A DNA stretch of 64,000 nucleotides, from IMG/VR virus record IMGVR_UViG_3300029267_004155; one strand, written 5' to 3'. The notes under the pieces were generated by a model. It ran no database searches. It saw nothing but the letters and a program-made list of their open reading frames with translations, and was not told where the DNA came from. Positions 8,247 to 33,984 of this stretch are shown piece by piece (positions within the stretch are counted from its first letter, which is position 1; every line of letters begins with the position of its first letter). The DNA comes from a virus (Duplodnaviria; Caudoviricetes). A program made the position numbers and the translations under genes.

Positions 8247-10040
8247 ATGCCTTGGGTCACGATAGATGAAGATGGCAGGATGGCCGTTCGTTGCGAGAAG
8301 GACGACAGCGCCGTCGTCAAGGACATCGGGGGGACCTGGGACAGCTTCAACAAGGTCTGGCAGGTCACCTTCACCATATCCAACCTCAACTACCTCGTCG
8401 ACGAGATGCCGGGGATAGTCGTCTCTCCGCAGGTCGAGAGCAGGATCAGGGGGCAGTCTGAGAAGGAGAGGAGGCTGAGGCAGCTCCGCCACCTGTCCAG
8501 GGAGGACATCCCCGTGCGCCTCAGGGTGCCCGGCCTCAAGCTGCCGCTCCGAAACTACCAGAAGCTCGGCGTTCAGTTCTGCATGACCAACGGTGAAGGG
8601 GTTCTCGTCGCCGATGAAATGGGCCTTGGCAAGACGGTGCAGGCCATAGCGACGGCGCTTTTCCTGAAGGATTCCGAGGGGATCGAGAAGGCGCTGATCG
8701 TCACGCCGGCCTCCCTCAAGTACAACTGGCCGATCGAGCTGGAGAAGTTCTGCGACGAGCCGTATGTCGTGATAGACGGGACGCCCGAGCAGAGGATGGC
8801 CCAGTGGCTTCGCGACGACGCCTTCTTCTACGTGACGAACTTCGAGCTGGTGACCGAGGACCTCTTCGGTGGCCGGGAGAAGAAGACAAGGAAGGGGGAG
8901 ACGGACGCCCAGAAGGCGAAGCGCCTGGAGTATGAGGCCAAGATGAGGAGGCGCATGCGGCTGCTGAGCGGTCCGAGGACTCGGAAGTGGGGCCTCGTAG
9001 CGGTCGACGAATGCCACGCCCTCAAGATCCATGCCTCCCGGAGGTCCCGGAACGTCAAGAGGCTGCGGGCCAAGTTCCGGATGGGGCTCACCGGCACGCC
9101 GCTCGACGGGCGCCTGGAGGAGCTTCACAGCGTCATGGGCTTCATCTGTCCCGGGCTGCTGGAGTCCAAGACCAGGTTCATGCAGAAGCACGCCATCTGC
9201 GATCCGTACGGCAAGGTCAAGGGGTACAAGCGCATTGCCGAGGTGCGTGAGAGGATCGGGCCCTATTTCATCCGGCGTCTGAAGAAGCATGTCCTGAAGG
9301 AGTTGCCGGACAAGATTTACCAGAACAGGGTGGTCGTCATGTCGGCGAGGGAGAAGAAGGTGTATGACGAGCTGGCCTCTCACGGGCATGAGGCCACTAT
9401 GGACGCACAGGCCATGGTCGCGATTATCCGGTGCAAGCAGTGGTGTGACCATTCGGAGCTGATTGACCATGTTGCCATTTCCAAGGATTCTGCTGCCAAG
9501 CGCCTGATGCCGCGCGGGATCAGGTCGTCGAAGATGGAGGCCCTCAAGGAGGTGCTTCAGGAGGCGGTGGTCGAGAATGGCCACAAGGTCCTGGTTTTCA
9601 CCCAGTACGCCAAGATGGCCGAATTGCTGCTGCCCGAGTTCGATCGGCTGGGCCTCAAGTATCTCTATCTGTGGGGAGAGACCCCGAAGAGGGAACGCGC
9701 GGCCATGCAGGAGAGATTCAACGAGGACAAGACGTTGGACCTGATGGTGGGGACGGAGGCGATGAGTGCCGGGCTCAACTTCACGGCTGCCGACGTGGTC
9801 GTCAACTACGACGACAACTGGGCTCCGGCCATCATGCAGCAGAGGGCCGACAGGGCTCACAGGATAGGGCAGAGGAACGTGGTCACCGTGGTGAATTTTA
9901 TATGCCAAGCGACGATTGAGGAGCGTATCAGGAAGGTGCTCTTCTCAAAGGGGAAGTTGTCGGCGCAGGCGCTCGGGGACGATGTCGACATGGCCGTCTT
10001 GAAGCGCCTCGGGCCGATGGACGTGGCGAGGATGTTGTAG
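8247..10040 (+). CDS. SNF2-family helicase/ATPase
   Basis: ADEMGLGKT, DECH, LTGTP, KVLVFTQY, AGLNF, QRADRAHRIGQ. Confidence 0.95.
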   Translation: MPWVTIDEDGRMAVRCEKDDSAVVKDIGGTWDSFNKVWQVTFTISNLNYLVDEMPGIVVSPQVESRIRGQSEKERRLRQLRHLSREDIPVRLRVPGLKLPLRNYQKLGVQFCMTNGEGVLVADEMGLGKTVQAIATALFLKDSEGIEKALIVTPASLKYNWPIELEKFCDEPYVVIDGTPEQRMAQWLRDDAFFYVTNFELVTEDLFGGREKKTRKGETDAQKAKRLEYEAKMRRRMRLLSGPRTRKWGLVAVDECHALKIHASRRSRNVKRLRAKFRMGLTGTPLDGRLEELHSVMGFICPGLLESKTRFMQKHAICDPYGKVKGYKRIAEVRERIGPYFIRRLKKHVLKELPDKIYQNRVVVMSAREKKVYDELASHGHEATMDAQAMVAIIRCKQWCDHSELIDHVAISKDSAAKRLMPRGIRSSKMEALKEVLQEAVVENGHKVLVFTQYAKMAELLLPEFDRLGLKYLYLWGETPKRERAAMQERFNEDKTLDLMVGTEAMSAGLNFTAADVVVNYDDNWAPAIMQQRADRAHRIGQRNVVTVVNFICQATIEERIRKVLFSKGKLSAQALGDDVDMAVLKRLGPMDVARML

Positions 10041-10042
10041 GG

Positions 10043-11626
10043 ATGGCGGGATTCAACGACACGACAGACCTGGAGAGGTCCTACCTTTCCTCGGTGACGG
10101 CCAGCGTCGTCATGGCGCGGCTCTACGTCCGCAGAGCCACGGAGGGCCTGTTCTCCAGTCCGGAGCGCAAGTTCATCTACTCCAGGGCCAGGGAGGCCAT
10201 GACCGCCTCCAAGGCGAGGCTCACCAGGAAGCTCTTCGAATACGAGCTGGAGCGCCTGGTCGACAAGAAGGAGCATCCGCACTACCTGGCCGAGTGGGAG
10301 CTGGTCGCGGCGAATAAGTCGACCGACAGCCCGGACGCCATCATCAAGCTGCTGGACGAGGCGAGGATCGGCCGTCTCATCATGGACGAGGCGGAGAGGG
10401 TGGTCGAGACTCTTGAGGCCGGCAGGATAGTCGACGCCGCGGCGCTCTGGAAGAGGGCGGCCGTCAGCATGTCCGTCGAGCGCGACGCGAGTCCGGTGGT
10501 GGAGATCACCGACTACGAGGACAGGAAGAAGACCATTCGGGACAAGCAGGCCCACCCCGAGAAGTACCTCGGGATCAAGACGGGCTTTCCGAGGTTCGAC
10601 GGGATGACTGGCGGCCTCTTCCCGAAGGAGCTGACGCTGGTCGCGGGCCTGACTGGAAGCGGCAAGTCGACGTTCGTCAGGGCGATCCAGAGGGGCATCA
10701 TCCTCAACAACGAGGACAAGAACGTCCTGCATATTGCCAACGAGGAGAGCCTGGAGCAGGTCCAGCACAAGTTCGACGCGTCCCTGACCAATATCCCCTA
10801 CAACGACTTCAAGCGGGCCACCATCACCGATGCCGGCATCCAGGAGTGGACCGACTTCATGGATGTGGACATGCGGAAGCCCGGTATCGGGCGCATCTTC
10901 GTCCGGGAGGTTCCGGCCTTCACTGACGTGACGCTGGTGGAGGAGGCCATCCGCGAGTTGGAGGCCAAGGGGATCAAGATTCACGTCGTCGTGATTGACC
11001 ATCTTCCTCATGTGAAGCCGATACAGCAGGCGTGGGGGGAGAACGACGAGAAGGCGAAGGCGGCGGCGGACTGCAAGGAGATAGCCAGGTGGTGCGACTG
11101 CGCGGTGGTGGTGCCGACGCAGGCCGCGACGGAGGTGGACGCGAAGCAGGAGAAGGGCAAGAGGGCTGGCAACTTGGACGTTTACGGGTCCAAGGCCCAG
11201 ATACATGTCTCGAACACATTCATCATCATCACGATTAAGGGCAAGGACGAGACGCAGGACGACCGGGAGGAGTGGGAGCAGGACGTCTTCTGGATGGCGG
11301 ATGTCAAGAAGAACCGCGACGGGCCGAAGTTCTGGTTCAGGGTGCGCCACCAGGTCCTGGTCGGACGGGTGATCGAGGAGATCGACGCCCAGGCGGACGC
11401 CGCGGATGCCGCGACGCAGCCCGATCCTCCCGATCCTCAGCAGGCGTCTCCGGCCAGGAAGGCTCCGCCGACGTCGGCGCCTCAAGATCCTCCGGCCCGG
11501 GAAGCTCCCAAGGGGGTCCTGGAGAAGTTGAGGGAGAGGAAAAAGGCGAATGGTTCCGGAGAATCGGATGGTGCGGCGTATAATGCGGAAAGCCAGTGGG
11601 CAATAAACCATGGCAGCAGGAGGTAG
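10043..11626 (+). CDS. dnaB: DnaB-like replicative helicase
   Basis: GIKTGFPRFD, AGLTGSGKST, VVIDHL, PTQA, KKNRDG; Pro/Ala-rich C-terminal tail. Confidence 0.9.
   Translation: MAGFNDTTDLERSYLSSVTASVVMARLYVRRATEGLFSSPERKFIYSRAREAMTASKARLTRKLFEYELERLVDKKEHPHYLAEWELVAANKSTDSPDAIIKLLDEARIGRLIMDEAERVVETLEAGRIVDAAALWKRAAVSMSVERDASPVVEITDYEDRKKTIRDKQAHPEKYLGIKTGFPRFDGMTGGLFPKELTLVAGLTGSGKSTFVRAIQRGIILNNEDKNVLHIANEESLEQVQHKFDASLTNIPYNDFKRATITDAGIQEWTDFMDVDMRKPGIGRIFVREVPAFTDVTLVEEAIRELEAKGIKIHVVVIDHLPHVKPIQQAWGENDEKAKAAADCKEIARWCDCAVVVPTQAATEVDAKQEKGKRAGNLDVYGSKAQIHVSNTFIIITIKGKDETQDDREEWEQDVFWMADVKKNRDGPKFWFRVRHQVLVGRVIEEIDAQADAADAATQPDPPDPQQASPARKAPPTSAPQDPPAREAPKGVLEKLRERKKANGSGESDGAAYNAESQWAINHGSRR
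11575..11584 (+). promoter_or_regulatory. GGCGTATAAT promoter-like motif
   Basis: Recurrent motif within the dnaB 3' end, upstream of SD AGGAGG and ATG 11631. Confidence 0.55.
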
Positions 11627-12621: not shown

Positions 12622-13704
12622 ATGGACGGCCCCAGTGTCAGGGAAAGGCTCAGATACAAGAACATCTCGTGGCTCATGCCGAGCGTGGACGTTCCGACGG
12701 TGCTGGACAAGCTCGGGATCGAGCACGAGGGGGTGAGGGGAGGTGAGATCAGGGGCTTTTGCCCCGACCACCACCTCTATACTGGCCGGCAGCCGTCGCA
12801 TCCGTACTGGACGGTCAACATCGAGACCGGTGAGACTTTCTGCTTCACGGAGGGCCGTGGAAGCAATCTCGTGTGGATCGTCAGGCGGCTTCTGGAGTGC
12901 CGGAGGGCTGACGACGCGGCCAAGTTCCTCGCGGGGTCGACAAGTGCCGCCATGGGCGACCTGGAGCTGGCGGGGCTCAGGAACCGTCTCCGGAAGATGA
13001 GGAGGCAGAAGGTCGACGAGGAAGGGCGCGAGGTCTCGGGCCTTGGGGAGATCGGGGCGGACCTGGCGGCCAGGCCGACGTCCGACAGGCTCTATGAGTT
13101 CTTCGTCAATCCGCCGGGAAGCAAGGGACCGACCAACATATCAAGGGAGACGGTCGACCGCTTCGAGGTGTTCGAGAGGAGCTGGGGCTACTACTGCGAC
13201 AGGGCGATCATCCCCTTCCGGCATGACGGCCAGCTGGTCGGCTTCTGCGCCGTCGACCTTCTCGGCGAGAGCGGGTGGACGGCGAAGCACCCCGCTGGAG
13301 GGGACTACCGGAAGACGCTCTACCCTCTCGGTTTCGGGGCGTCCGACTGCCTCTATGGATACGACGACTGCCGGCAGGGCGACAGGGTGATGCTGGTGGA
13401 GGACGCAAGGTCCAGGATGAAGCTGTGGCAGGAGGGATGGCCGTCCTGCTGCGCCCTCTTGGGGTCCTCGATCCACGGCCCTCAGATAAGGCTCCTGGCG
13501 ACGTTGGCGCCGGAGGAGGTCCTGCTCTTGATGGACGGTGACAGCGCCGGCAGGGAGGCCACCGACAAGATCGCTGCGAAGCTTGTTCGGAACTTCAAGG
13601 TCAGGCCGTGCTACGTGCCGGTCGGGAAGGACCCTAAGAACCTAGACTCCAGCGAGATACAGAAAGTTGTAAAAAAATCTCGTCGACTGGTGGCGAAAGC
13701 CTGA
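12622..13704 (+). CDS. dnaG: DNA primase (Zn-finger + TOPRIM)
   Basis: CPDH...FCF Zn finger, RAIIPF, LVED, MDGDSAG, KDP. Confidence 0.9.
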   Translation: MDGPSVRERLRYKNISWLMPSVDVPTVLDKLGIEHEGVRGGEIRGFCPDHHLYTGRQPSHPYWTVNIETGETFCFTEGRGSNLVWIVRRLLECRRADDAAKFLAGSTSAAMGDLELAGLRNRLRKMRRQKVDEEGREVSGLGEIGADLAARPTSDRLYEFFVNPPGSKGPTNISRETVDRFEVFERSWGYYCDRAIIPFRHDGQLVGFCAVDLLGESGWTAKHPAGGDYRKTLYPLGFGASDCLYGYDDCRQGDRVMLVEDARSRMKLWQEGWPSCCALLGSSIHGPQIRLLATLAPEEVLLLMDGDSAGREATDKIAAKLVRNFKVRPCYVPVGKDPKNLDSSEIQKVVKKSRRLVAKA

Positions 13705-13790: not shown

Positions 13791-14546
13791 ATGTCTGCGT
13801 CTGTCTGTCCAGACCGCATCGAGACCATCGAGATGGCACCCACCTTCAGGCGTTCCGGGAGTCCTTCGGCCGGGGCTCTGGTCGGGATGCCGGCTGAGCG
13901 GTCTCCGGTGATTGAGCGTATTCCGGTTACCCAGAAGTATCTTGCCGCTGTCATCAGCACCGGCTTCGAGGTTGACCATCCTGGTTGGGCTCGGGCGAGG
14001 CCGTATTTCGAGGAGAGCCTCCGCGACAGCGTGGCGGCGCTTGTTCATACCTTCGCTTCCAAGTATGCGACCTCTTGCGACGATGAGATTGAAGACTTGG
14101 AGCAGGAGTGCTTCCGGCGCATATTCATGAAGCTCCACCTCTACAAGCCCTTGAAGGGGGCGTTCACCACTTGGACCTCCCGCGTCTGTCATAGCGTGTT
14201 GAATGGGAAGTATCGGAAGAGCAAGAGGTGGAAGGGGCGAGTCGTGTTGTCCGAGCCGGCTATCATCGAGAGGGTTGTTGATGCGAGCGAGGAAGGGGAC
14301 CGATGCGACAGGTTCGACATGCGTGAGGCGCTGAGGGAGCTCTTCGGTCTCCATCCGGAGTTTCGGGGCTTCTTGACGGCTCTGTTCGACGGCGATCCCG
14401 AGGAGGACGACTACGAGCCGCCAGGGAAGATTAGTGTGATGGGGGCGTGCAGGATTTCCGGCGCGCCGTACGAGAGGGCGTACCCGTTCTACCTGAAGGT
14501 GGTGCGACCGTTTTTCAGGGAGCGTTTTGCTGGAGATGAGAGATGA
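13791..14546 (+). CDS. Phage sigma70-like factor (clear region 2, atypical region 4)
   Basis: EDLEQECFRRIFMKLHLYKPLKGAFTTWTSRVCHS matches the sigma region-2 pattern; SD GGAGG; AT-rich upstream gap. Confidence 0.7.
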   Translation: MSASVCPDRIETIEMAPTFRRSGSPSAGALVGMPAERSPVIERIPVTQKYLAAVISTGFEVDHPGWARARPYFEESLRDSVAALVHTFASKYATSCDDEIEDLEQECFRRIFMKLHLYKPLKGAFTTWTSRVCHSVLNGKYRKSKRWKGRVVLSEPAIIERVVDASEEGDRCDRFDMREALRELFGLHPEFRGFLTALFDGDPEEDDYEPPGKISVMGACRISGAPYERAYPFYLKVVRPFFRERFAGDER

Positions 14547-14974
14547 CAGCTGCCGATGTGATGATGGAGAAGAGGAAGGCGATAGGGGAGCTTTTGCCGA
14601 GTTCGTGTTTCGGCCACTACCTGGAAACCTCCAAGGCATGTTCGAACTGCCAGATCGCCAAGCACTGCGTCAAGACGACGGAAAGGGTCAGGAGCGGCAG
14701 CCCGCCGCCGGCCCCGGGGCATCCCGAGCCGAAGACGGTTCCGGCGCCCGACGCCAAGGAGTACCTGCTGACGACCCTCAGGGGCAAGTTTGACATGTCG
14801 GCCTCCAGGGAGGGCGACGTCCAGACTTGGAAGTTCCACAAGGATGGCAAGCCGGCCTTTTGGGTGATGGAGAAGGGTGGCAGGCTGGGCCTTCAGACGC
14901 GCAAGGGCAGGGAGGTGTTGGAGCTGCCGTCCTCGGTCGTCGAGGTCGAGGCGGCCTTGGAGAGGCTCCTGTGA
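14543..14974 (+). CDS. Hypothetical protein with an N-terminal CFG-x8-C-x2-C-x5-C motif
   Basis: CFGHYLETSKACSNCQIAKHC; ATGA overlap. Confidence 0.65.
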   Translation: MTAADVMMEKRKAIGELLPSSCFGHYLETSKACSNCQIAKHCVKTTERVRSGSPPPAPGHPEPKTVPAPDAKEYLLTTLRGKFDMSASREGDVQTWKFHKDGKPAFWVMEKGGRLGLQTRKGREVLELPSSVVEVEAALERLL

Positions 14975-15882
14975 GGACGACGGAGTACCCCTGGTACCTT
15001 CCGCCCTTCCCTGAGTTCAATGAGGCCCAGGCAGCGGCCGTTCCGTTCCTGGACGAGGACGTGAACATGGTCGTGGCCTTTCCCACCGCGACGGGCAAGT
15101 CGGTGCTGGCCGAGTGCGCCTTTGCCTATCACCTGTCAGTGGACGAGAAGGCCAGGGTGGCCTATGTCTGTCCATACAGGAGCCTGGGCGCCCGGATGTA
15201 TGCCGAGTGGGTCTCCAACGGGGCCTTCGTCGGCCACGGGGTGATGCTGAGCTCGGGGGACACGGTGCCGACGGCGCGGGAGTGGGAGAGGTGCAGGATG
15301 GCGGTCCTGACGGTCGAGTCGTTCGACTCCAAGGTCAGGTCGGCGTCGTACTCCGAGTGGGTGGAGAGCCTCGCATGCGTGGTTTTCGACGAGGCCCACC
15401 TTCTGGGCGAGAAGGTGAGAGGGGCGGCGCTTGAGGCTTCCCTCATGAGGTTCACCGCGGCCAACCAGTCGGCGCGCGTCGTCATGCTCTCCGCGACCAT
15501 GGCCAACGCGCTGGAGGTGGCCAGGTGGGTCAAGAGTCTCAACGGGAAGCCGACGAAGTGCGTTCGGAGCTCGTGGAGGCCGACGGGCATCGACATGAGG
15601 TTCCACGAGGCGGAGCGGGGGTCCGAGGCCGAGAGGGCCGTTGAGGTGGCCAGGGCCATGCGGGGAAAGACGATCGTGTTCGTCCACTCGAAGAGGGTGG
15701 GCAGGGAGGTGGCTGCGGGTCTAGTCGAGAGCGGGGTGCGCTGTGCCTTCCACAACGCGTCGGTGCCGAAGGGCCGGAGGGCCGCGATGGAGAAGGCTTT
15801 CGATGATCCCGCGTCCGGTCTCGACGTTCTGGTGTCGACGTCGACCCTGGGTGCGGGGGTGAATATAGGCAGCAGCGGTTGA
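14971..15882 (+). CDS. Ski2/Hel308-type SF2 helicase, N-terminal half (Q motif to motif V)
   Basis: FNEAQ, PTATGKS, DEAH, LSATM, IVFVHSK, FHNA, STSTLGAGVN then stop; GTG start overlapping the previous stop. Confidence 0.9.
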   Translation: MRTTEYPWYLPPFPEFNEAQAAAVPFLDEDVNMVVAFPTATGKSVLAECAFAYHLSVDEKARVAYVCPYRSLGARMYAEWVSNGAFVGHGVMLSSGDTVPTAREWERCRMAVLTVESFDSKVRSASYSEWVESLACVVFDEAHLLGEKVRGAALEASLMRFTAANQSARVVMLSATMANALEVARWVKSLNGKPTKCVRSSWRPTGIDMRFHEAERGSEAERAVEVARAMRGKTIVFVHSKRVGREVAAGLVESGVRCAFHNASVPKGRRAAMEKAFDDPASGLDVLVSTSTLGAGVNIGSSG

Positions 15883-15916
15883 TTTGTAATTGTCTACTGA
15901 ACGGGGAGTGCATCGG

Positions 15917-16501
15917 ATGAGAAGCGAGCAGGAGAGGCTGGACATCCTCAGATCGGCATGCCTGGAATGTCGGATGTGCAAGTCCATCGGTGGGGTTGTG
16001 ATCGACGGTTGCGTGTCCAACGTGTTTTCCAGCGGGGGCGTCCGTTGCGCTCTGGCGGTCGTCGGGCAGAACCCAGGCCGTGACGAGGTGGCCGCGGGCA
16101 TGCCGTTTGTCGGGGCCTCGGGGAGGTTCTTCGACGAGGCTCTGGCCGAGTGGGTTGGTCTGTCGAGGGATCAGGTCTACGCGACCAACGTGGTGCATTG
16201 CTACACGCCGGGCAACCGGGCTCCGACGTTGGAGGAGCTGGACAACTGCCGCCCCTTCCTGGAGGAGGAGATCGAGATCGTGCGGCCGAAAGTGGTGCTC
16301 GCCCTTGGGGCTTTCGCCTTCAAGATGCTGACCGGGATGAGCGGGATCATGAAGCACTGCGGGGACGTGGTCCATTCGATCCGGTACGGGGTCCAGGTGG
16401 TCGGCTGCCTGCATCCCAGCCCGTACAACACGAGCGACCCGGAGAAGCGGGAGATGTTCGCGCAGGCGATGAGGAGGCTCAGGGAGGTGCTCGATGCGTG
16501 A
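15917..16501 (+). CDS. Uracil-DNA glycosylase, family 4-like (Fe-S)
   Basis: CxxC, GQNPG..E...GMPFVGASG, TNVVHC.TPGNRAP, HPS; motif A reads GQNPG instead of the usual GE(A/G)PG. Confidence 0.9.
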   Translation: MRSEQERLDILRSACLECRMCKSIGGVVIDGCVSNVFSSGGVRCALAVVGQNPGRDEVAAGMPFVGASGRFFDEALAEWVGLSRDQVYATNVVHCYTPGNRAPTLEELDNCRPFLEEEIEIVRPKVVLALGAFAFKMLTGMSGIMKHCGDVVHSIRYGVQVVGCLHPSPYNTSDPEKREMFAQAMRRLREVLDA

Positions 16502-16525
16502 CTGGTGGCTCAGAGGTTTCCGGGC

Positions 16526-16535
16526 GGCGTATAGT
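16526..16535 (+). promoter_or_regulatory. GGCGTATAGT promoter-like motif upstream of the helicase C-half
   Basis: Recurrent motif in an intergenic gap. Confidence 0.55.
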
Positions 16536-16657
16536 TTGCAGATGAGAGCGTCTGGTGCTGGTTCGTAGCTTGGCTTGCCAGGTTTGTGGAGCGGGAGGCA
16601 TGAAGGCGGGGCCTTGTGGCAACATGACTAGCGACGAGTACGATAGGTGGTTCGGGG

Positions 16658-17665
16658 ATGGCTGACAACGTGGTCATAGTGGGAGTGAGACGGGGGCCGT
16701 CCCTGGTTCCGGTCGGCGAGCTGCGTCAGATGGCGGGGCGTGCCGGGCGCGTCCAGGGAGGCGCCGACGCCCGCATCGAGGTGGTGGTGTCCCCCGAGGA
16801 CGCCGACTACGCCGGAGAGGCGCTGTCTCCAGGAGGGGACCCGGTCGTGGGGTCGGCCATGGGGGACGAGGACGTCATGGCTTTCCACTTGCTCCCCGAG
16901 ATATGCGCTGGAAGGGTCCGTGGGGGTCGCACGGCGGCCTTGTGGCACTCGCGCGGCTTCCATGCGGCGCTGGGGTTGCCGTCGCCGGTCGACGGCGCAA
17001 TGGGGCTTCTGAGGGACTGTGGGGCGATCGAGGAGTCGACGGGGAGGGTCGTGGCTACGTCGCTTGGAAGAGTGGCGTCGCTGATGTACTTCCATCCGGT
17101 GGACGTGGCGGCGTGGGCGTCCAACTTCGACGAGGTGTTCAGGCTCGGGGCCGAGGACGACGACCTGGCTGCGGCGTGGGCTCTCGGGAGCGTCCCGTCT
17201 TCGAGGAGGTCGGGCGATCTGTCCGGGAGGTTCTGGGTGGCCGGGAAGTTCAAGGACGAGCTTCCGTCAGGTCTGGAGCCAGTGGCCGGGTCGATCGTGA
17301 ACTGCGTCCTGTGGTGGTCTCTGGTAGGGGGGCCGTCCGTCGGCCCGCTGAGGGGGCTGTCCCTCCAGCTCCGCGAAGACAGGCAGAGGGTGTTCGGCGC
17401 GCTGAGGAGGCTTGACAGGGAGGTGGGCCGGTGGGGCAGGTCGGACTACTTCGACCGTCTGGAGTTCCAGGTGGAGAAGTCGATCCCGGTTGAGCTCGTG
17501 CCCCTATGCCGGCTGCCCGGCGTCGGGAAGGGCATGGCCATCAGGTTGTACGAGATGGGGGTCGAGGGTCCGGAGGCGGTTCTGGCGGAGGCCGGCGTGG
17601 AGGGTCCGAGGAGCGACGAGGAGACGGGCATGATTGCCAGGGGGCTGGCTGATGGTCTCTGCTGA
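16658..17665 (+). CDS. Ski2/Hel308-type helicase, C-terminal half (motif VI, winged helix, ratchet, HhH)
   Basis: Starts ADNVVIVG, then QMAGRAGR, ATSLGRVASLMYFHP, LCRLPGVGKGMAIRLYEMG. Confidence 0.88.
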   Translation: MADNVVIVGVRRGPSLVPVGELRQMAGRAGRVQGGADARIEVVVSPEDADYAGEALSPGGDPVVGSAMGDEDVMAFHLLPEICAGRVRGGRTAALWHSRGFHAALGLPSPVDGAMGLLRDCGAIEESTGRVVATSLGRVASLMYFHPVDVAAWASNFDEVFRLGAEDDDLAAAWALGSVPSSRRSGDLSGRFWVAGKFKDELPSGLEPVAGSIVNCVLWWSLVGGPSVGPLRGLSLQLREDRQRVFGALRRLDREVGRWGRSDYFDRLEFQVEKSIPVELVPLCRLPGVGKGMAIRLYEMGVEGPEAVLAEAGVEGPRSDEETGMIARGLADGLC

Positions 17666-28066: not shown

Positions 28067-29135
28067 CGTGCTTGGGCATGACGAGAAGGGCGGTCACCTT
28101 TTCCGGTGGGACGGCGAGTTCCACTACGACGGGAGGGTGGCTGCTCCCTTTTGCCCGATTGTCCCTGACAGCCGCGCGAGGGCCAGGGTGGCAGGTGCGA
28201 CCTTCCTCTCCGGCGTCGGGGGGCTGTCTGTCTGTCTGGACGTGAGCGGTCTTGAGATAACCTTGTGGTTTGTCTCGTGGGGAGTGCTGGGCTTCGCCGC
28301 CCGCCGGATCGACGAGCTGTCCGTGTTGTCCATCCCGACGGCCATGCCGGTGGTGGTTTGCGGGGATGTCTGCTTGGACCCGGACCGCATGCGGAGGGTG
28401 TGCCGCGCCTATCCTGCCCATTGGCTGAAGGCGTGCCCGCTCGTTGACGGGCTTGAGGCCTTCGGGGCCCTTGTCGAGCATGTGGCGGCGGAAAAGGCCG
28501 AGCGGCCCAGGGCGCTGTCGCTCATGGAGCCGGCGGAGGGCGATCTCCAGGGCGAGTTCCAGGAGTTCGACCAGGAGCTTGGGTCGGACGGCCTGGGGCG
28601 CATGGCGCACCTGGTTGCGAAAGGTCGTCCGGTCTTGAACCAGATGATGGCCGGTCCGTGCATTCGGAGGTTCAACGGGTCGGTGGTGGCCCGGTCCGGG
28701 GACGGGGTTTGGCTGACGACGTCGCGGGAGGCTCAGAGGATGTTCCCGATGGAGCCGGTGTCGCTCAAGGCCCACGCGGCCCGTCAGGTCCCGGTGATGG
28801 TGGAGCCGACTGCCGAGTTCCGGGAGGCGACGGGGTTCGACGGGGACCAGGTGGCGATCCTGGTGGCGTCCGACTCGATGCCGGGTTCGGAGGTCTTTCT
28901 GAGGATGTATTTCCCGTACTCCGGGAGGAAGTCGGTATGCCTTCTTGACCCAAAATCCCCCGAGGCTCCGCGAAACGCTCCCGTTTTTCGATATAATAAG
29001 GGTTGGAGACTGGACGAGGCGCGATACAGAGAGGTGGTCGATGGTGGACCTTCAGACTTTCTACGACGGGTGCGGGACGCCGGAGGGGCAGCGGCTGGGG
29101 AGCTGGAAGGCTGTGCTGCTGGTGGTGCCTCTTGA
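28059..29135 (+). CDS. Hypothetical protein
   Basis: 358-aa ORF coupled to the ParB gene; 3' end overlaps the dnaE start. Confidence 0.55.
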   Translation: MADVLGHDEKGGHLFRWDGEFHYDGRVAAPFCPIVPDSRARARVAGATFLSGVGGLSVCLDVSGLEITLWFVSWGVLGFAARRIDELSVLSIPTAMPVVVCGDVCLDPDRMRRVCRAYPAHWLKACPLVDGLEAFGALVEHVAAEKAERPRALSLMEPAEGDLQGEFQEFDQELGSDGLGRMAHLVAKGRPVLNQMMAGPCIRRFNGSVVARSGDGVWLTTSREAQRMFPMEPVSLKAHAARQVPVMVEPTAEFREATGFDGDQVAILVASDSMPGSEVFLRMYFPYSGRKSVCLLDPKSPEAPRNAPVFRYNKGWRLDEARYREVVDGGPSDFLRRVRDAGGAAAGELEGCAAGGAS

Positions 29136-32100
29136 GGACTTCTGCGTGGACGACTACGTGGCGCAGCTCGGCTTGGACAGGGCCGAGGTCGCGGTGACCT
29201 GGGAGAAGGACGGTGTCGACATCGTCCAGGAGATGATGCTCGCCAAGGCCGCTGTCGTCGTCCAGTGCTCTGCTCGCTTCTCTCGCAAGTTCCCCCATGT
29301 CGCCAACCCTTGGGCCATCGACGACGCCCTGAGGGAACGAGTGCATGCCGCGCTTCCTGACGCCTACGTTAGCCTGCACCACCATGACGAGTTCAGCATC
29401 AGGGACGGCCTGGGGCGCGTCGAGGACCTTGTGAAGCTCCTGAAGGCCCAGGGGCGGTCCTTCTGCTGCGTGACCAACCACGGCTCCGTGGGGGGCTGGA
29501 TACGGCAGTACAAGGCGTGCAGGGAGGCCGGGATCAAGGCCATCTTCGGTTGCCTGACGCCTGGACAGCCGATATTTGCTAAGAATGGGGTGAAAAAGAT
29601 TGAGGATGTTCGTGTCGGGGATGAGGTTCTTACTCATAATGGGCGTTTTCAAAGGGTGGTCGGATGCTCTAAGAGGAATTATTCAGGAACAGTGTACAGA
29701 ATAGAATGCTGGGGGGAGAGTGGCTTGGAGGTTACTGGGGAACATCCCGTTATGGTGTACGGGAAGACATCTCACAAGTGGGAATTTGGTTTTTCCTGGG
29801 AGAAGCCGGAAGATATTAAATTTGGACGGGCGAATATGAGGTGTTCTGCGGCTCGGAGTGGCTCTAAAGTCCGTGGATTGTGGAGGAGTTATGCAGTTCT
29901 TCCAAGAATTCCAGATACAGAGGAGTCAATGATAAAAGTCTTGGATTGGGTTGTGGGGTATGAGAATAGAGAGGGGAAGGCATATCGGACTCGCAATGGG
30001 CCGAATGATACGGTGTCAAATAGGAATTTTCCAGTAGAGATCGCACTGACTGGTGATTGGATGAGGATGTTTGGGCTGTATGTGGCGGAGGGAAGTCAGC
30101 AGCATGGGACAGTGAGGTGGACATTTAACAACTTATCGGATGTGCGGGCAATTGATTTTCTGAGGACATTTCTAAAGTCCGAGTTGGGCCTTGAATTGGT
30201 ATGTGCTGGAGAGGTCTCTTTTACGGATAAAAATGGAAATGAAAGGGTGTCGCAGGCATCGGATTATTATGTTTGCTCGGTGATTCTTCAAAAGATGATG
30301 TTGGCCATGTTTGGTGCGGGGGCGAAAGAGAAGAAGTTTCCGATTTCGTTCCTTGGATTGAATAAAAGCCTTTTGGCTGCTTTTATTTGGGGTCTTTGGG
30401 AGGGAGATGCAAACAAGCGTGGTGATGTGCTGACTACGAGTTCATGGGAGTTGGCTCATTTGAGTCGTTTGGCCGTAGCAAAAGTGAAGGGTGCAGCCTA
30501 TCAGGTGTCATGCGTGAAGAATGGAGAATTTGACAGGTATGATGTTCGATGGGGTAGGACAGCCAATACTGATGAGGTGTATACGGATAGTGATGATTCT
30601 TTTGTCTATCTTCCGATAAGGAACGTGGATCGTAGGTGGTATGATGGTCCGGTATACAATCTTCATGTTGAAGAGGATAACAGTTATGTGTCTGGTGTGG
30701 CCGTTCATAATTGCGAAATGTACGTCAACGACTACCGGGGCGACGATCCCGAGCTGAAGAAGGCGAGCCGGAGGAGCAGCCATCTGATCTTGACGGCCAG
30801 GACCGAGGAGGGCCTCTACAACCTCATCCGGATACACAACGACGCCCAGCTGGACGGTTTCTACTACATGCCGAGGATGAACCACGAGGCGGCGAGGAGG
30901 TGGGGGAAGGGAATCGTGGCGACGTCGGCCTGTTTGTCGGGCGAGGTGCCGCGGCTGCTGATGGCCGAGCCGCCGCCCCAGCGAACGCCCGAGACGGACG
31001 TGGAGTACGAGCAGCGCTGCGAGGTGGCCAAGGCCGTGGCGAAGAAGGCCAAGACGGACTACGAGCCGCCGGAACGCGACACGGGCGAGACGGACGCCGA
31101 GTACTTGGCGGCCTGCGCTGTCTTCGTGAAGGCCGCGAGGGAGGAGGCCGAGCGCATCTACCGGCTCTACGAGGAGGCCTTCGACGAGTTTTACGTCGAG
31201 CTCCAGATCATCGAGTACGAGGAGCAGCGGGAGGTCAACCGGCGCTTGATCGAGTTCGGTCGCGAGGTCGGGGCCAAGTTCATGCTGGCATCAGACTCCC
31301 ACTACCTGGACGCGACTCACGCGAACACCCACGACCTGCTTCTCATGATGCGCCAGGGCAAGACCGTGCTGGACAAGAGGGAGAGCGAGGAGGAGGTCTG
31401 GAATTTCCAGGTGGCGAACCTCTACTACCGGGACGCCGCGGCCATGCGGGACGTCTTTGAGAACGGCTTCGTCGATAAGAAGGGCGGCAGGCACGGGCCG
31501 TTCCGGGACGACGTCTTCACCGAGGAGGTGTTCGTCGAGGCCATGGCGAACACCAGGAGGGTGGCGGTCGCGGCCGACCCCATCAGGTTCGATCCGACGA
31601 TTCAGCTTCCGAAGCTCTACGACAACGGCGCGGAGATGCTGCGCCGGAAGGTGAACGCCGGCTTCGGCGAGCGCGGGATCGGCAGGAGGGTGGACGTCCA
31701 GGACTACCTGGACAGGGTCAGGCACGAGTTCGCGGTCATCACCAAGCTCGGGTGGGCCGACTACTTCCTGATCATGGACAGGATCGTGGCTGACGCCAAG
31801 GAGAAGTTCGGCGAGTGGGCCGTCGGGTATGGGAGAGGGAGCGCCGCTGGGAGCCTGGTCTCCTATTGCCTCGGACTGACGGACTGTGACCCGCTGGAGC
31901 ACGGCCTCCTTTTCGAGAGGTTCCTGGATGAGGGGCGCCGGGATGCTCCGGACATCGACACCGACTTCGACCCGCGGGTGAGGGAGTGGGTGAAGGGCCA
32001 TATTGTCAAGGTCTTCGGGGAGGACAACGTCTGCTCCATCGGGACCTACTCGACCTACAAGACCAGGGCTGTCATACTCGGCGTCGCCAGGGTTCTGGCC

Positions 32101-33984
32101 CTGGACGTCCACGAGGCCAACGCGGTGACGAAGAAGCTGGAGCCGCTGAAGTCGTTCGAGGTCGGGGACGAGGGCGACGAGGAGATCGTCGACAAGATGG
32201 ACCTGGACGACGTCTGCGCCCACTACCCGGAGCTGGCCGACTACCTGGACCGCAACCCGGAGGTCCGCTTCCATGCCGAGATCATCCGGAACCAGGTCAG
32301 CAACATGGGCAAGCACGCGGGTGGCGTCATCATATCGGGGAGTAGCCTGAAGGGGCGCATCCCGGTCCTGAGGGACTCCAAGGGCGGCATCCTGTCCGCC
32401 TGGGCCGAGTCCGGCACTGTGCAGGAGCTCAGCGAGCTCGGCCTGGTGAAGTACGACATCCTGGGGCTCAACAACCTCCCGGTGATAGCCGATTGCATCA
32501 GCTTCATCGAGGACAGGCATGGGGTCAGGCCGATTCGGGACGAGATTCCTATTGACGACCGGAACTCCATCCGGCAGGAGGCCAGGAGGGACCTGGTTGG
32601 CATCTTCCAGTTCGAGAACCCGGCCACGATGCCGATAGTGGCCGAGGTGGGCATGGAGTCGCTGAACGACGTGGCCGCGATCACGTCCCTCATCCGGCCT
32701 GGTCCGAAGGACATGGGCATGGACATGGAGTACGCCAGGAGGAAGCACGGGCAGCCGTACGAGGTGCTCGACTGCATCCGGGAGATACTGGCGCCGACCT
32801 ACGGGATCATCGTCTACCAGGAGCAGATGATGCAGATAAGCCAGGCCCTCTGCGGTTTCGACGGGCCCAAGGCTAACAGGCTTCGGCGCGCGTGCGGGAA
32901 GAAGAACGTGGAGCTGATGAGGAGCGTCAAGGAGGACTTTGTCAACGGGGCGCAGCCGAGGATCGACTCCGGTGAGGTGACGACGAGGCAGGTGGAGGAC
33001 CTGTGGGAGTTGGTCGTGAAATTCGCAAAATACGGGTTCAACAAATCACACGCGATCACCTACAGCGCGATCACGACGGTGGAGCTGTGGCTGAAGCACA
33101 ACTACCTGGTGGAGTACATGGCGGCGCTGCTCAACAACACGAAGCAGGGCAAGAAGAAGCACGGCTCCTCGAACATCCTGGTCCGGTACGTCAACTACGC
33201 CAGGCGCCGGGGGATCGACATGCTGCCCCCGGACGTCTCCAGGAGCGGCGTGGGGTTCAGGCTGGAGGGGCCGTCCATCCGGTTCTCGCTGGGGCACGTC
33301 AAGAACGTGGCGACGTCGGCGACGGAGATCGAGGCGGCGCAGCCGTTCACGGGCATCGAGGATTTCAACGCTCGGGTGATGGCGACCGTCAACCGGAAGC
33401 AGAAGGACGGGACCTACAAGGCGACGAAGCAGAAGCTCAACAAGAGGGTCTTTGAGAGCTTGCTGTATGCTGGGGCTTTTGACTCTTTCGGTGCCCGGAA
33501 CGAGGTGGCGGCCAAGTTCGCCGAGCTGCGAAAGCAGAAGACGCCCCCCGTCGAGCTGTCGGACGACGAGTGGCTGGAGAAGGAGCGCGAGATGTGCGGG
33601 CTCGTGATGTCGGTCGACCCGCTGGTGAAGAGGTGCGGGGCCCTGATATCGGAGGCCAAGGCCCAGACCATAGGGGAGGAGGCGATCCGGGACAGGGTGC
33701 GCCTCTTCGGCCGGATAGACTCGATTGTCAACCACACGTCCAGGAACGGGAACCCGATGTGGAAGGTGTTTCTGGACGACGGGATAGACTCGATCATGTT
33801 CTACGTGTTCGAGGGTGGAAAGCAGAGGTTCAAGGACGAGTTCGAGACTGGCGACGTGGCGCTGGTCCCGATGAAGAGGTTCGAGGATGGCGGCCAACGC
33901 TTCTTCGACGACGATGGTGATTGCGTGGTGTTCACAAAGGAGGACGTTGATGATGCTGAAGCCGGGAGACTGTCTCAGGGTTAA
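29041..33984 (+). CDS. dnaE: DNA polymerase III alpha subunit with intein
   Basis: PHP domain (LHHHDEFSIRDG, TNHG, DSHY), GRGSAAGSLV, PDIDTDF, HAGG, KYDILGL, YQEQMM, FNKSHA; start 29041 after SD GAGGT and CGATATAAT at 28989. Confidence 0.97.
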   Translation: MVDLQTFYDGCGTPEGQRLGSWKAVLLVVPLEDFCVDDYVAQLGLDRAEVAVTWEKDGVDIVQEMMLAKAAVVVQCSARFSRKFPHVANPWAIDDALRERVHAALPDAYVSLHHHDEFSIRDGLGRVEDLVKLLKAQGRSFCCVTNHGSVGGWIRQYKACREAGIKAIFGCLTPGQPIFAKNGVKKIEDVRVGDEVLTHNGRFQRVVGCSKRNYSGTVYRIECWGESGLEVTGEHPVMVYGKTSHKWEFGFSWEKPEDIKFGRANMRCSAARSGSKVRGLWRSYAVLPRIPDTEESMIKVLDWVVGYENREGKAYRTRNGPNDTVSNRNFPVEIALTGDWMRMFGLYVAEGSQQHGTVRWTFNNLSDVRAIDFLRTFLKSELGLELVCAGEVSFTDKNGNERVSQASDYYVCSVILQKMMLAMFGAGAKEKKFPISFLGLNKSLLAAFIWGLWEGDANKRGDVLTTSSWELAHLSRLAVAKVKGAAYQVSCVKNGEFDRYDVRWGRTANTDEVYTDSDDSFVYLPIRNVDRRWYDGPVYNLHVEEDNSYVSGVAVHNCEMYVNDYRGDDPELKKASRRSSHLILTARTEEGLYNLIRIHNDAQLDGFYYMPRMNHEAARRWGKGIVATSACLSGEVPRLLMAEPPPQRTPETDVEYEQRCEVAKAVAKKAKTDYEPPERDTGETDAEYLAACAVFVKAAREEAERIYRLYEEAFDEFYVELQIIEYEEQREVNRRLIEFGREVGAKFMLASDSHYLDATHANTHDLLLMMRQGKTVLDKRESEEEVWNFQVANLYYRDAAAMRDVFENGFVDKKGGRHGPFRDDVFTEEVFVEAMANTRRVAVAADPIRFDPTIQLPKLYDNGAEMLRRKVNAGFGERGIGRRVDVQDYLDRVRHEFAVITKLGWADYFLIMDRIVADAKEKFGEWAVGYGRGSAAGSLVSYCLGLTDCDPLEHGLLFERFLDEGRRDAPDIDTDFDPRVREWVKGHIVKVFGEDNVCSIGTYSTYKTRAVILGVARVLALDVHEANAVTKKLEPLKSFEVGDEGDEEIVDKMDLDDVCAHYPELADYLDRNPEVRFHAEIIRNQVSNMGKHAGGVIISGSSLKGRIPVLRDSKGGILSAWAESGTVQELSELGLVKYDILGLNNLPVIADCISFIEDRHGVRPIRDEIPIDDRNSIRQEARRDLVGIFQFENPATMPIVAEVGMESLNDVAAITSLIRPGPKDMGMDMEYARRKHGQPYEVLDCIREILAPTYGIIVYQEQMMQISQALCGFDGPKANRLRRACGKKNVELMRSVKEDFVNGAQPRIDSGEVTTRQVEDLWELVVKFAKYGFNKSHAITYSAITTVELWLKHNYLVEYMAALLNNTKQGKKKHGSSNILVRYVNYARRRGIDMLPPDVSRSGVGFRLEGPSIRFSLGHVKNVATSATEIEAAQPFTGIEDFNARVMATVNRKQKDGTYKATKQKLNKRVFESLLYAGAFDSFGARNEVAAKFAELRKQKTPPVELSDDEWLEKEREMCGLVMSVDPLVKRCGALISEAKAQTIGEEAIRDRVRLFGRIDSIVNHTSRNGNPMWKVFLDDGIDSIMFYVFEGGKQRFKDEFETGDVALVPMKRFEDGGQRFFDDDGDCVVFTKEDVDDAEAGRLSQG
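29551..30711 (+). mobile_element. Intein (387 aa) with LAGLIDADG homing endonuclease, in the DnaE PHP domain
   Basis: GIKAIFG|CLTPG...VTGEHP...YNLHVEEDNSYV...VHN|CEMY; LAGLIDADG-like FGLYVAEGS and IWGLWEGDA; sharp GC drop bounded by the splice junctions. Confidence 0.96.

Follow-up and report, generated by a model that had tools for sequence, protein, structure and literature searches.

A predicted Hel308-type helicase encoded by two genes on either side of a uracil-DNA glycosylase gene in large uncultured phages

The DNA that we analyzed (hereafter the window) is a stretch of 64,000 nt from the IMG/VR virus record IMGVR_UViG_3300029267_004155 (Duplodnaviria; Caudoviricetes), and all positions given below refer to this window unless the locus of a relative is named. 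Within it, the N-terminal half (N-half) and the C-terminal half (C-half) of a helicase are encoded by two separate genes, with the gene of a family-4-type uracil-DNA glycosylase (UDG) and a short spacer between them (Table 1). A first-pass annotation had described this arrangement as a helicase split between motifs V and VI with a UDG gene in the gap, and all of its coordinates hold. As judged by motifs and alignments, the two halves are parts of one Hel308/Ski2-like superfamily 2 (SF2) helicase with a putative 3'-5' DNA-unwinding activity. We consider it likely that this Hel308-type helicase is a working two-piece enzyme, made as two separately translated polypeptides that are cut within RecA domain 2 (RecA2), with the UDG gene lying between their genes.

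Table 1. Features of the helicase locus and of the genes preceding it (positions in the window)
Feature	Position	Strand	Remarks
Helicase N-half	14971..15882	+	303 aa; RecA1 and first four RecA2 strands; motifs I-V; Pfam DEAD and partial Helicase_C
Shine-Dalgarno (SD)-like GGGGAG	15902..15907	+	Precedes the UDG ATG
Family-4-type UDG gene	15917..16501	+	194 aa; Fe-S cysteine ligands, motifs A and B
Spacer, 156 nt	16502..16657	+	Non-coding or decayed open reading frame (ORF)
Repeated-motif copy GGCGTATA[GA]T..GCA	16526..16541	+	Candidate phage promoter ahead of the C-half
SD-like AGGTGG	16645..16650	+	7 nt before the C-half ATG
Helicase C-half	16658..17665	+	335 aa; last RecA2 strands and motif VI, then winged-helix, ratchet and helix-hairpin-helix (HhH) domains
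SNF2 helicase	8247-10040		Replication/recombination module upstream of the helicase halves
DnaB-like helicase	10043-11626		Same module
Toprim primase	12622-13704		Same module
Sigma-70-like factor	13791-14546		Same module
Small Cys-rich ORF	14543-14974		Between the sigma gene and the helicase N-half

The N-half starts at a GTG (14971) that overlaps the TGA of the upstream gene, with GGAGAGG 5 nt upstream, and carries motif I (TATGKS), motif II (DEAH), motif III (SAT), motif IV and motif V (STSTLGAGVN). Its stop codon is the TGA at 15880-15882, and its C-terminus reads ...STSTLGAGVNI-GSSG-stop, GSSG being a 4-aa tail. The C-half opens at ATG 16658 and reads M-ADNVVIVGVRRG...QMAGRAGR, which includes motif VI. 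Motifs I-VI are all present across the pair, so that both halves keep their motifs as previously annotated, and they are invariant in 20 N-halves and 46 C-halves. For comparison, the unsplit relative L001 reads ...GLNLP-ARRVVILGVHRG, the IMG/VR phage L019 reads ...GVNTP-AKGVIVLG, and the unsplit 675-aa homologue of the 595-kb uncultured phage LR756511 reads ...TSTLAWGLNLP-ARRVVILGVHRG. The halves of the window are collinear with L001 and L019, the C-half methionine standing at the proline position and the sole extra residues being the 4-aa N-half tail. Joining the halves indeed restores the family pattern with almost no loss, as had been noticed at first, and the statement that intein residues are absent is likewise correct for the two halves of the window. 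Hel308 models of NCBIfam match both halves, with scores far below the equivalog cut-offs, and the C-half can be aligned to A. fulgidus Hel308 (PDB 2p6r) over residues 358-491 and 595-660. This alignment, the NCBIfam matches and the structural model described below agree on winged-helix, ratchet and HhH domains after RecA2.

The UDG gene starts at ATG 15917, and a longer ORF in the same frame starts at TTG 15890. Its product matches PF03167 (E 2.7e-32) and shares with the family 4 UDGs of Thermus (UDGA, 1ui0), Thermotoga (1l9g) and Sulfolobus (4zbx), which it matches with E values of 1e-21 to 1e-24, and with UdgX, the UDG fold as judged by sequence, the four-cysteine iron-sulfur (Fe-S) pattern CxxC...C...C and motif B (HPSP). 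It differs from family 4 UDGs in scoring just under the cut-off of TIGR00758, the family 4 model (123.9 bits against 125.3), in motif A, which is GQNPG instead of GEAPG, and in being nested between the halves of another gene. The cysteine pattern and HPSP are kept in 13 UDG orthologues, and motif A is GQNPG, not GE(A/G)PG, in all orthologues. As a separate observation, the nested UDG of locus L014 (L014:6157-7812) bears an intein of ~360 aa after NVVK, beside a conserved Fe-S cysteine; this intein ends ...VVHN/C and contains LAGLIDADG-like sequence.

The same split is found clade-wide among relatives. A word-indexed protein search with the N-half returned 236 proteins, and the best 120 N-half clusters of that search are 276-320 aa long and 51-73% identical; in all, more than 120 clusters have the N-half length of ~300 aa. 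Of 20 N-halves that were aligned, all but one, which has a 21-aa tail, terminate 0-4 residues past GVNx. With the C-half as query, an exhaustive HMMER search yielded ~50 clusters (50% identity) whose members are 320-357 aa long and aligned from residue 1 onward, while unsplit proteins of 600-1500 aa surface in this search only from E ~1e-33. We retrieved 19 IMG/VR loci and 80 metagenome loci, and 38 distinct loci hold both halves; the halves are always adjacent, ordered N then C and co-oriented, and the UDG sits between them in 27 of the 38. A search of 185,579 prokaryote genomes yielded no member of the split helicase, only a remote archaeal Hel308.

The predicted structures, all of single chains only, place the break within a domain and not between domains. 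The AlphaFold model of P0242, a re-fused relative that is introduced below, has a mean predicted local distance difference test score (pLDDT) of 87.6 and a predicted template modeling (TM) score of 0.84, and it matches Hel308, Hjm, Brr2 cassettes and the helicase domain of DNA polymerase theta (Pol theta) over its full length (9b15, 2p6r, 2zj8; TM ~0.7). The break maps to P0242 loop 304-313, a low-pLDDT block between RecA2 strands 297-300 (motif V) and 314-318, in line with the earlier claim that it lies inside RecA2. In the model of the window's C-half (pLDDT 91.6), strand 4-8 is followed by a hairpin, helix 19-26 (motif VI), strand 39-43 and then the helical domains, and the first 45 residues make up an incomplete piece of a RecA sheet. 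RecA2 would be completed between the two chains, and the surface that domains 3-5 form around the RecA core would hold the pair together. With Hel308/Hjm and Ski2-like helicases (2p6r, 9b15, 2zj8, 2va8; Brr2; Pol theta) the phage helicase shares motifs I-VI and the order RecA1, RecA2, winged helix, ratchet, HhH; unlike Hel308/Hjm, it is phage-encoded and consists of two polypeptides, and it is only ~22% identical to the solved structures.

We then placed the split in a helicase tree of concatenated halves plus nine unsplit proteins, which was rooted on seven distant unsplit ones and obtained with a short tree search. All split forms fall into one clade (Shimodaira-Hasegawa-like approximate likelihood ratio test, SH-aLRT, 99). 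The first branch of this clade (L088, L093-98) is split without a UDG, and the remainder (support 96) contains all UDG-bearing loci together with three further lineages without UDG, namely the L016 group and L069, both on the tree, and L041, recognized by locus inspection. Nested inside the split clade are also two unsplit proteins, P0129 (606 aa) and P0242 (659 aa), whose linkers at the old break read GVNI-LSSNDRE-HVVIVG and GVNL-S-CDRAIIVD, respectively, and which look like secondary re-fusions. The topology of the UDG tree largely agrees with that of the helicase tree, and this agreement supports one insertion of the UDG followed by vertical inheritance. The probable course of events, as read from these trees, starts with a single split, after which a UDG entered the new junction once; a few UDG losses and the two re-fusions would have followed. 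The title of the first-pass annotation had suggested that the UDG belongs with the split; the rooted tree suggests instead that the UDG was inserted after the split had arisen.

The junction has also received other genes. Based on Pfam matches, three loci (L030:1478-2389, L045:4949-5743 and L049:4952-5905) have genes of zinc-ribbon and DUF559/Vsr-like endonucleases positioned after the N-half and ahead of the UDG, and look-alike endonuclease ORFs were recognized by sequence only in L035 and L048. The window's own gap contains no free-standing homing endonuclease gene, only the UDG and the spacer. A TnpB/IS605 OrfB gene directly follows the N-half at L083:4969-6150, a C5 DNA methylase and a thymidylate-synthase-like gene follow it at L080:4834-6640, where no C-half was found within 4 kb, and a ThyA-like gene precedes the UDG at L089:4940-5962. 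Small ORFs without assigned family are present between the UDG and the C-half in L003, L005, L010, L045, L048 and L049. Furthermore, the helicases of relatives carry inteins at the P-loop (~residue 45), at DEAH (~residue 141) and at motif VI (QM/C...), as seen in N-halves P0121-P0130 and C-halves L090-L092, and the outgroup P0244 has an intein at motif V (...SHN/CNLPARRV), three residues upstream of the split point. These sequences mark the coding DNA of motif V as a mobile-element target, and an origin of the split by endonuclease invasion is therefore plausible, even though the founding event is not visible.

The position of the UDG gene could also mean that a three-protein machine is encoded here, with the UDG as an obligate third subunit on the split helicase that couples uracil excision to fork remodeling, and with the split being kept for assembly. 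Such a machine would account for the N-UDG-C order and translational coupling that persist across deep divergence in 27 of the 38 distinct loci, and for selection on the UDG (dN/dS ~0.07; see below) that is as strong as on the halves. Examples are known of phage UDGs that act alongside replication enzymes or are fused or otherwise physically attached to them (PMC13697223); at the present junction, conserved co-expression is supported, not contact. However, the deepest split lineage and the three other lineages described above lack the UDG while their halves are intact, and unrelated genes occupy the same gap. A UDG homologue is also absent from the records of L017 (202 kb, 62% complete) and L020, and neither N-UDG nor N-UDG-C fusion proteins were found among the longer relatives, in which the long close matches are N-halves with inteins. 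In LR756511, the UDG lies ~100 kb away from the unsplit helicase. We therefore regard an obligate third subunit as unlikely. We are equally doubtful of the broader idea that the motif VI arginine finger and the DNA ratchet sit on an exchangeable subunit, that activity is gated by assembly with the UDG as a physical partner, and that the junction serves as a plug-in site for modification or repair genes.

Alternatively, the halves might no longer cooperate, the N-half acting, for example, as an ATPase or DNA binder that lacks motif VI and the C-half as a DNA-binding accessory protein. Separate ORFs, and possibly separate promoters in this window, would be compatible with such a divorce, but the motif VI arginines and every N-half motif are invariant across the clade, the two genes have kept their adjacency, order and orientation throughout, and two lineages have re-fused them into one ORF. 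Moreover, C-half residues 1-45 would be left as the incomplete RecA-sheet piece described above. Independent functions of the halves are, on balance, improbable.

The manner in which the two halves are translated was examined across the 38 distinct loci. The position homologous to the proline (GVNxP/A) is a start codon in all of them (24 ATG, 8 GTG and 6 TTG), and an SD-like element is present upstream of the C-half in 21 (strict) to 29 (loose). In the compact loci L002, L004, L008, L011 and L013, the UDG ORF spans the entire gap, and stops and starts overlap or abut: the UDG ATG overlaps the N-half stop (ggATGa, or AGGAGGgtaa and then the start), and the UDG TGA falls within the first codons of the C-half (ATGGCTGA). 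The same C-half start context in the window contains the TGA at which upstream ORFs terminate in relatives. The N-half tail codons of relatives (GGA, GGAGG) themselves supply the SD for the UDG or overlap its start, and the N-half tails are short and G-rich because they encode this SD or overlap for the next gene. While the gaps with a UDG measure 558-2238 nt, the halves of the 11 loci without UDG are separated by just 1-57 nt, with frames that vary and, in some cases, tandem in-frame stops (TAG TGA); in the deepest split lineage, the gap is 12-57 nt with tandem in-frame stops. In most relatives, the C-half start is, by its sequence context, translationally coupled to the preceding stop codon.

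These layouts speak to a further proposal of the first-pass annotation, namely that the halves are rejoined by RNA splicing or bypass, which could involve a group I/II intron with the UDG as its ORF or ribosomal bypass of the kind known from T4 gene 60. In its favor, the break is exact and a stop comes soon after it, as after a 5' splice site, and several N-halves end in GGA-stop, resembling the gene 60 take-off site. We discarded these GGA codons as candidate take-off sites, since they serve as SD or overlap for the UDG start. Unlike group I/II introns, the locus shows no catalytic RNA core: Rfam gave no match at E up to 10 on 15700-16800, nor at the gathering threshold on the whole window or 13 relatives. 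The spacer RNA folds no better than shuffled sequence (z = -0.13), and the compact loci leave no room for non-coding RNA. Gene 60 bypass concerns a gap of ~50 nt and needs no downstream start, in contrast to gaps that either far exceed this length or are tiny and in varying frames, with a C-half start codon that is always kept. Given the conserved starts, the filled or tiny gaps, the lack of an Rfam match and of excess fold, and the lack of room for intein halves, intron, bypass element and trans-splicing are excluded as general mechanisms, and we see hardly any chance that RNA-level or translational events rejoin the two halves.

All three genes are under purifying selection. For five pairs of relatives, the proportion of synonymous differences (pS) in the three genes is 0.65-0.90, which is saturated, and that of nonsynonymous differences (pN) is 0.08-0.38; the ratio of nonsynonymous to synonymous substitution rates (dN/dS), where dS was computable, is ~0.05-0.09 in all three genes. 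With this absence of relaxed selection, with intact motifs and with over 100 independent metagenomic contigs showing the same split, the possibilities of a pseudogene in decay and of an assembly artefact, both of which had been considered from the outset and have nothing in their favor beyond the interruption itself, can be dismissed with near certainty.

The 156-nt spacer ahead of the C-half sets this window apart from most relatives. The frame at 16600-16665 stops at the TGA inside ATGGCTGA. In its last ~14 codons, MTSDEYDRWFGDG, there is a weak similarity to the C-terminus of an ORF of 131-161 aa, which is located at the same place in L003, L005 and L049. The spacer may be a decayed copy of this ORF, or the frame may be a coupling leader. 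The spacer also carries, at 16526, a copy (GGCGTATAGT..GCA) of the motif GGCGTATA[GA]T(n)T(n)GCA, which occurs at 10 sites in the window versus 1.75 expected (among them 6055, 11575, 16526, 18704, 25601 and 54787), several of which lie 20-120 nt upstream of ORF starts. This repeated motif is a candidate promoter for a phage polymerase or one directed by a phage sigma factor, and the C-half of this window may have its own phage-type promoter. No sigma-70-type promoters or terminators were seen on the + strand. Of the promoter motif and SD that had been assigned to the C-half, the SD (AGGTGG) stands and the promoter motif is supported in part, through the repeated motif at 16526 as a candidate. 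Separately timed halves, another earlier suggestion, are possible in this window only, through the spacer motif, and not in general, since the C-half start of most relatives is coupled to the stop just before it. We also considered a target-site-like duplication, in which the N-half tail NIGSSG resembles an in-frame TIGGSG upstream of the C-half ATG. We treated this similarity as coincidence because it is found only in this window, the codons differ, and the DNA is better explained as the remnant of a neighboring ORF in another frame.

Taken together, we favor the two-piece enzyme, which would work as follows. The cut would lie in a surface loop just after motif V of RecA2. The N-half would bring RecA1 and most of RecA2, with Walker A/B and motifs III-V, and the C-half would complete RecA2 with its last strands and the motif VI arginines and add the winged-helix, ratchet and HhH domains. 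An active enzyme would form only once both chains complete one RecA2 sheet, and the C-half would presumably embrace the N-half in the manner of domains 3-5 of single-chain Hel308. A single split event, in a phage ancestral to a large clade of uncultured large phages, would have turned the break into an intergenic junction into which the family-4-type UDG gene was later inserted and then vertically inherited. The UDG would be co-transcribed with the halves and, in most relatives, translationally coupled to both, while further genes and mobile elements would accumulate at the same junction. Of the heterodimer assembled in trans that the first-pass annotation had envisaged, the two separate polypeptides are backed by the conserved break and starts, the coupling, the selection and the re-fusions, and the physical assembly is what we infer. 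Several points weigh against this reading. The binding of the halves to each other is deduced, with stability assumed from the single-chain fold, and our literature search gave no precedent for a two-chain RecA2 domain in SF2 helicases. The distance of 156 nt between UDG and C-half, together with the possible promoter of the latter, makes stoichiometric coupling less sure here than in relatives. Lastly, the order of split before UDG, albeit probable, follows from parsimony on one short-search tree, and one extra UDG loss would reverse it.

With regard to the genomic setting, the window has a G+C content of ~65% and carries nearly every gene on the + strand. Metagenomic contigs that carry the identical N-half reach 233 kb, and those with a near-identical member of its cluster reach 298 kb; the source of the window is a large uncultured phage, also termed a jumbo phage. 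The helicase halves lie in a module of replication and recombination genes (Table 1), which continues downstream with RecA, a 5'-3' exonuclease (FEN), a tubulin-family protein and a probably intein-bearing DnaE. Because the halves and the UDG lie among these genes and next to that of a DnaB-like helicase, the split enzyme would be an accessory helicase of fork repair or recombination and not the replicative helicase. The Cys-rich ORF overlaps both the stop of the sigma gene (ATGA) and the start of the N-half (GTGA), and the sigma gene, the Cys-rich ORF and the helicase N-half therefore look translationally chained. In the 1679-aa DnaE-type polymerase (28945-33984), Hint and intein-splicing matches within the PHP region point to a probable intein.

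In phiKZ-like jumbo phages, the beta/beta' subunits of RNA polymerase are encoded in pieces. As in that case, several polypeptides of a large phage would rebuild a fold that is single-chain elsewhere, but the enzyme is a different one and the helicase is cut within a single small domain. The closest parallel is provided by the phage fractured genes of Dassa et al. 2009 (PMC2677866), in which a Vsr-related family of predicted homing endonucleases was described. Like the intein-less fractured genes, the helicase gene is a DNA-metabolism gene broken into two co-oriented genes at its original locus, with foreign genes in the gap, an upstream stop and a downstream methionine at the edges of the insert, and, in L030, L045 and L049, free-standing genes for Vsr-like (DUF559) endonucleases between the halves. 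It is not a fractured gene in the strict split-intein sense, as IntN and IntC are absent and the C-half starts at the extein. Other differences are that the host gene encodes a Hel308-type SF2 helicase cut inside RecA2, outside the eight enzyme types of PMC2677866, that its halves have neither split-intein halves nor an added interaction domain (tails of 0-4 aa), that the usual occupant of the gap is a UDG and not an endonuclease, and that the split is ancient and clade-wide, persists with an empty gap and has been reversed twice by re-fusion. In phage Aeh1, nrdA is split by mobE and the NrdA pieces assemble without covalent joining (PMC3045599), and by analogy the helicase pieces would be expected to do the same. 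A description of this helicase split was not found in our literature search.

If our interpretation is correct, these phages would possess a natural, ancient and widespread SF2 helicase whose motor domain consists of two polypeptides, one contributing Walker A/B and the other the motif VI arginines. The pair would provide a ready-made split helicase for studying the folding of RecA2 and the way in which motif VI couples ATP hydrolysis to translocation, and possibly a design for assembly-gated helicases. For annotation, ORFs of ~300 aa and ~335 aa in large-phage metagenomes would have to be read as one enzyme. With respect to the evolution of phage genomes, the locus would illustrate that a fractured gene can endure over long periods, during which its invader is lost or replaced, useful cargo such as a UDG is acquired and, occasionally, the pieces fuse again.

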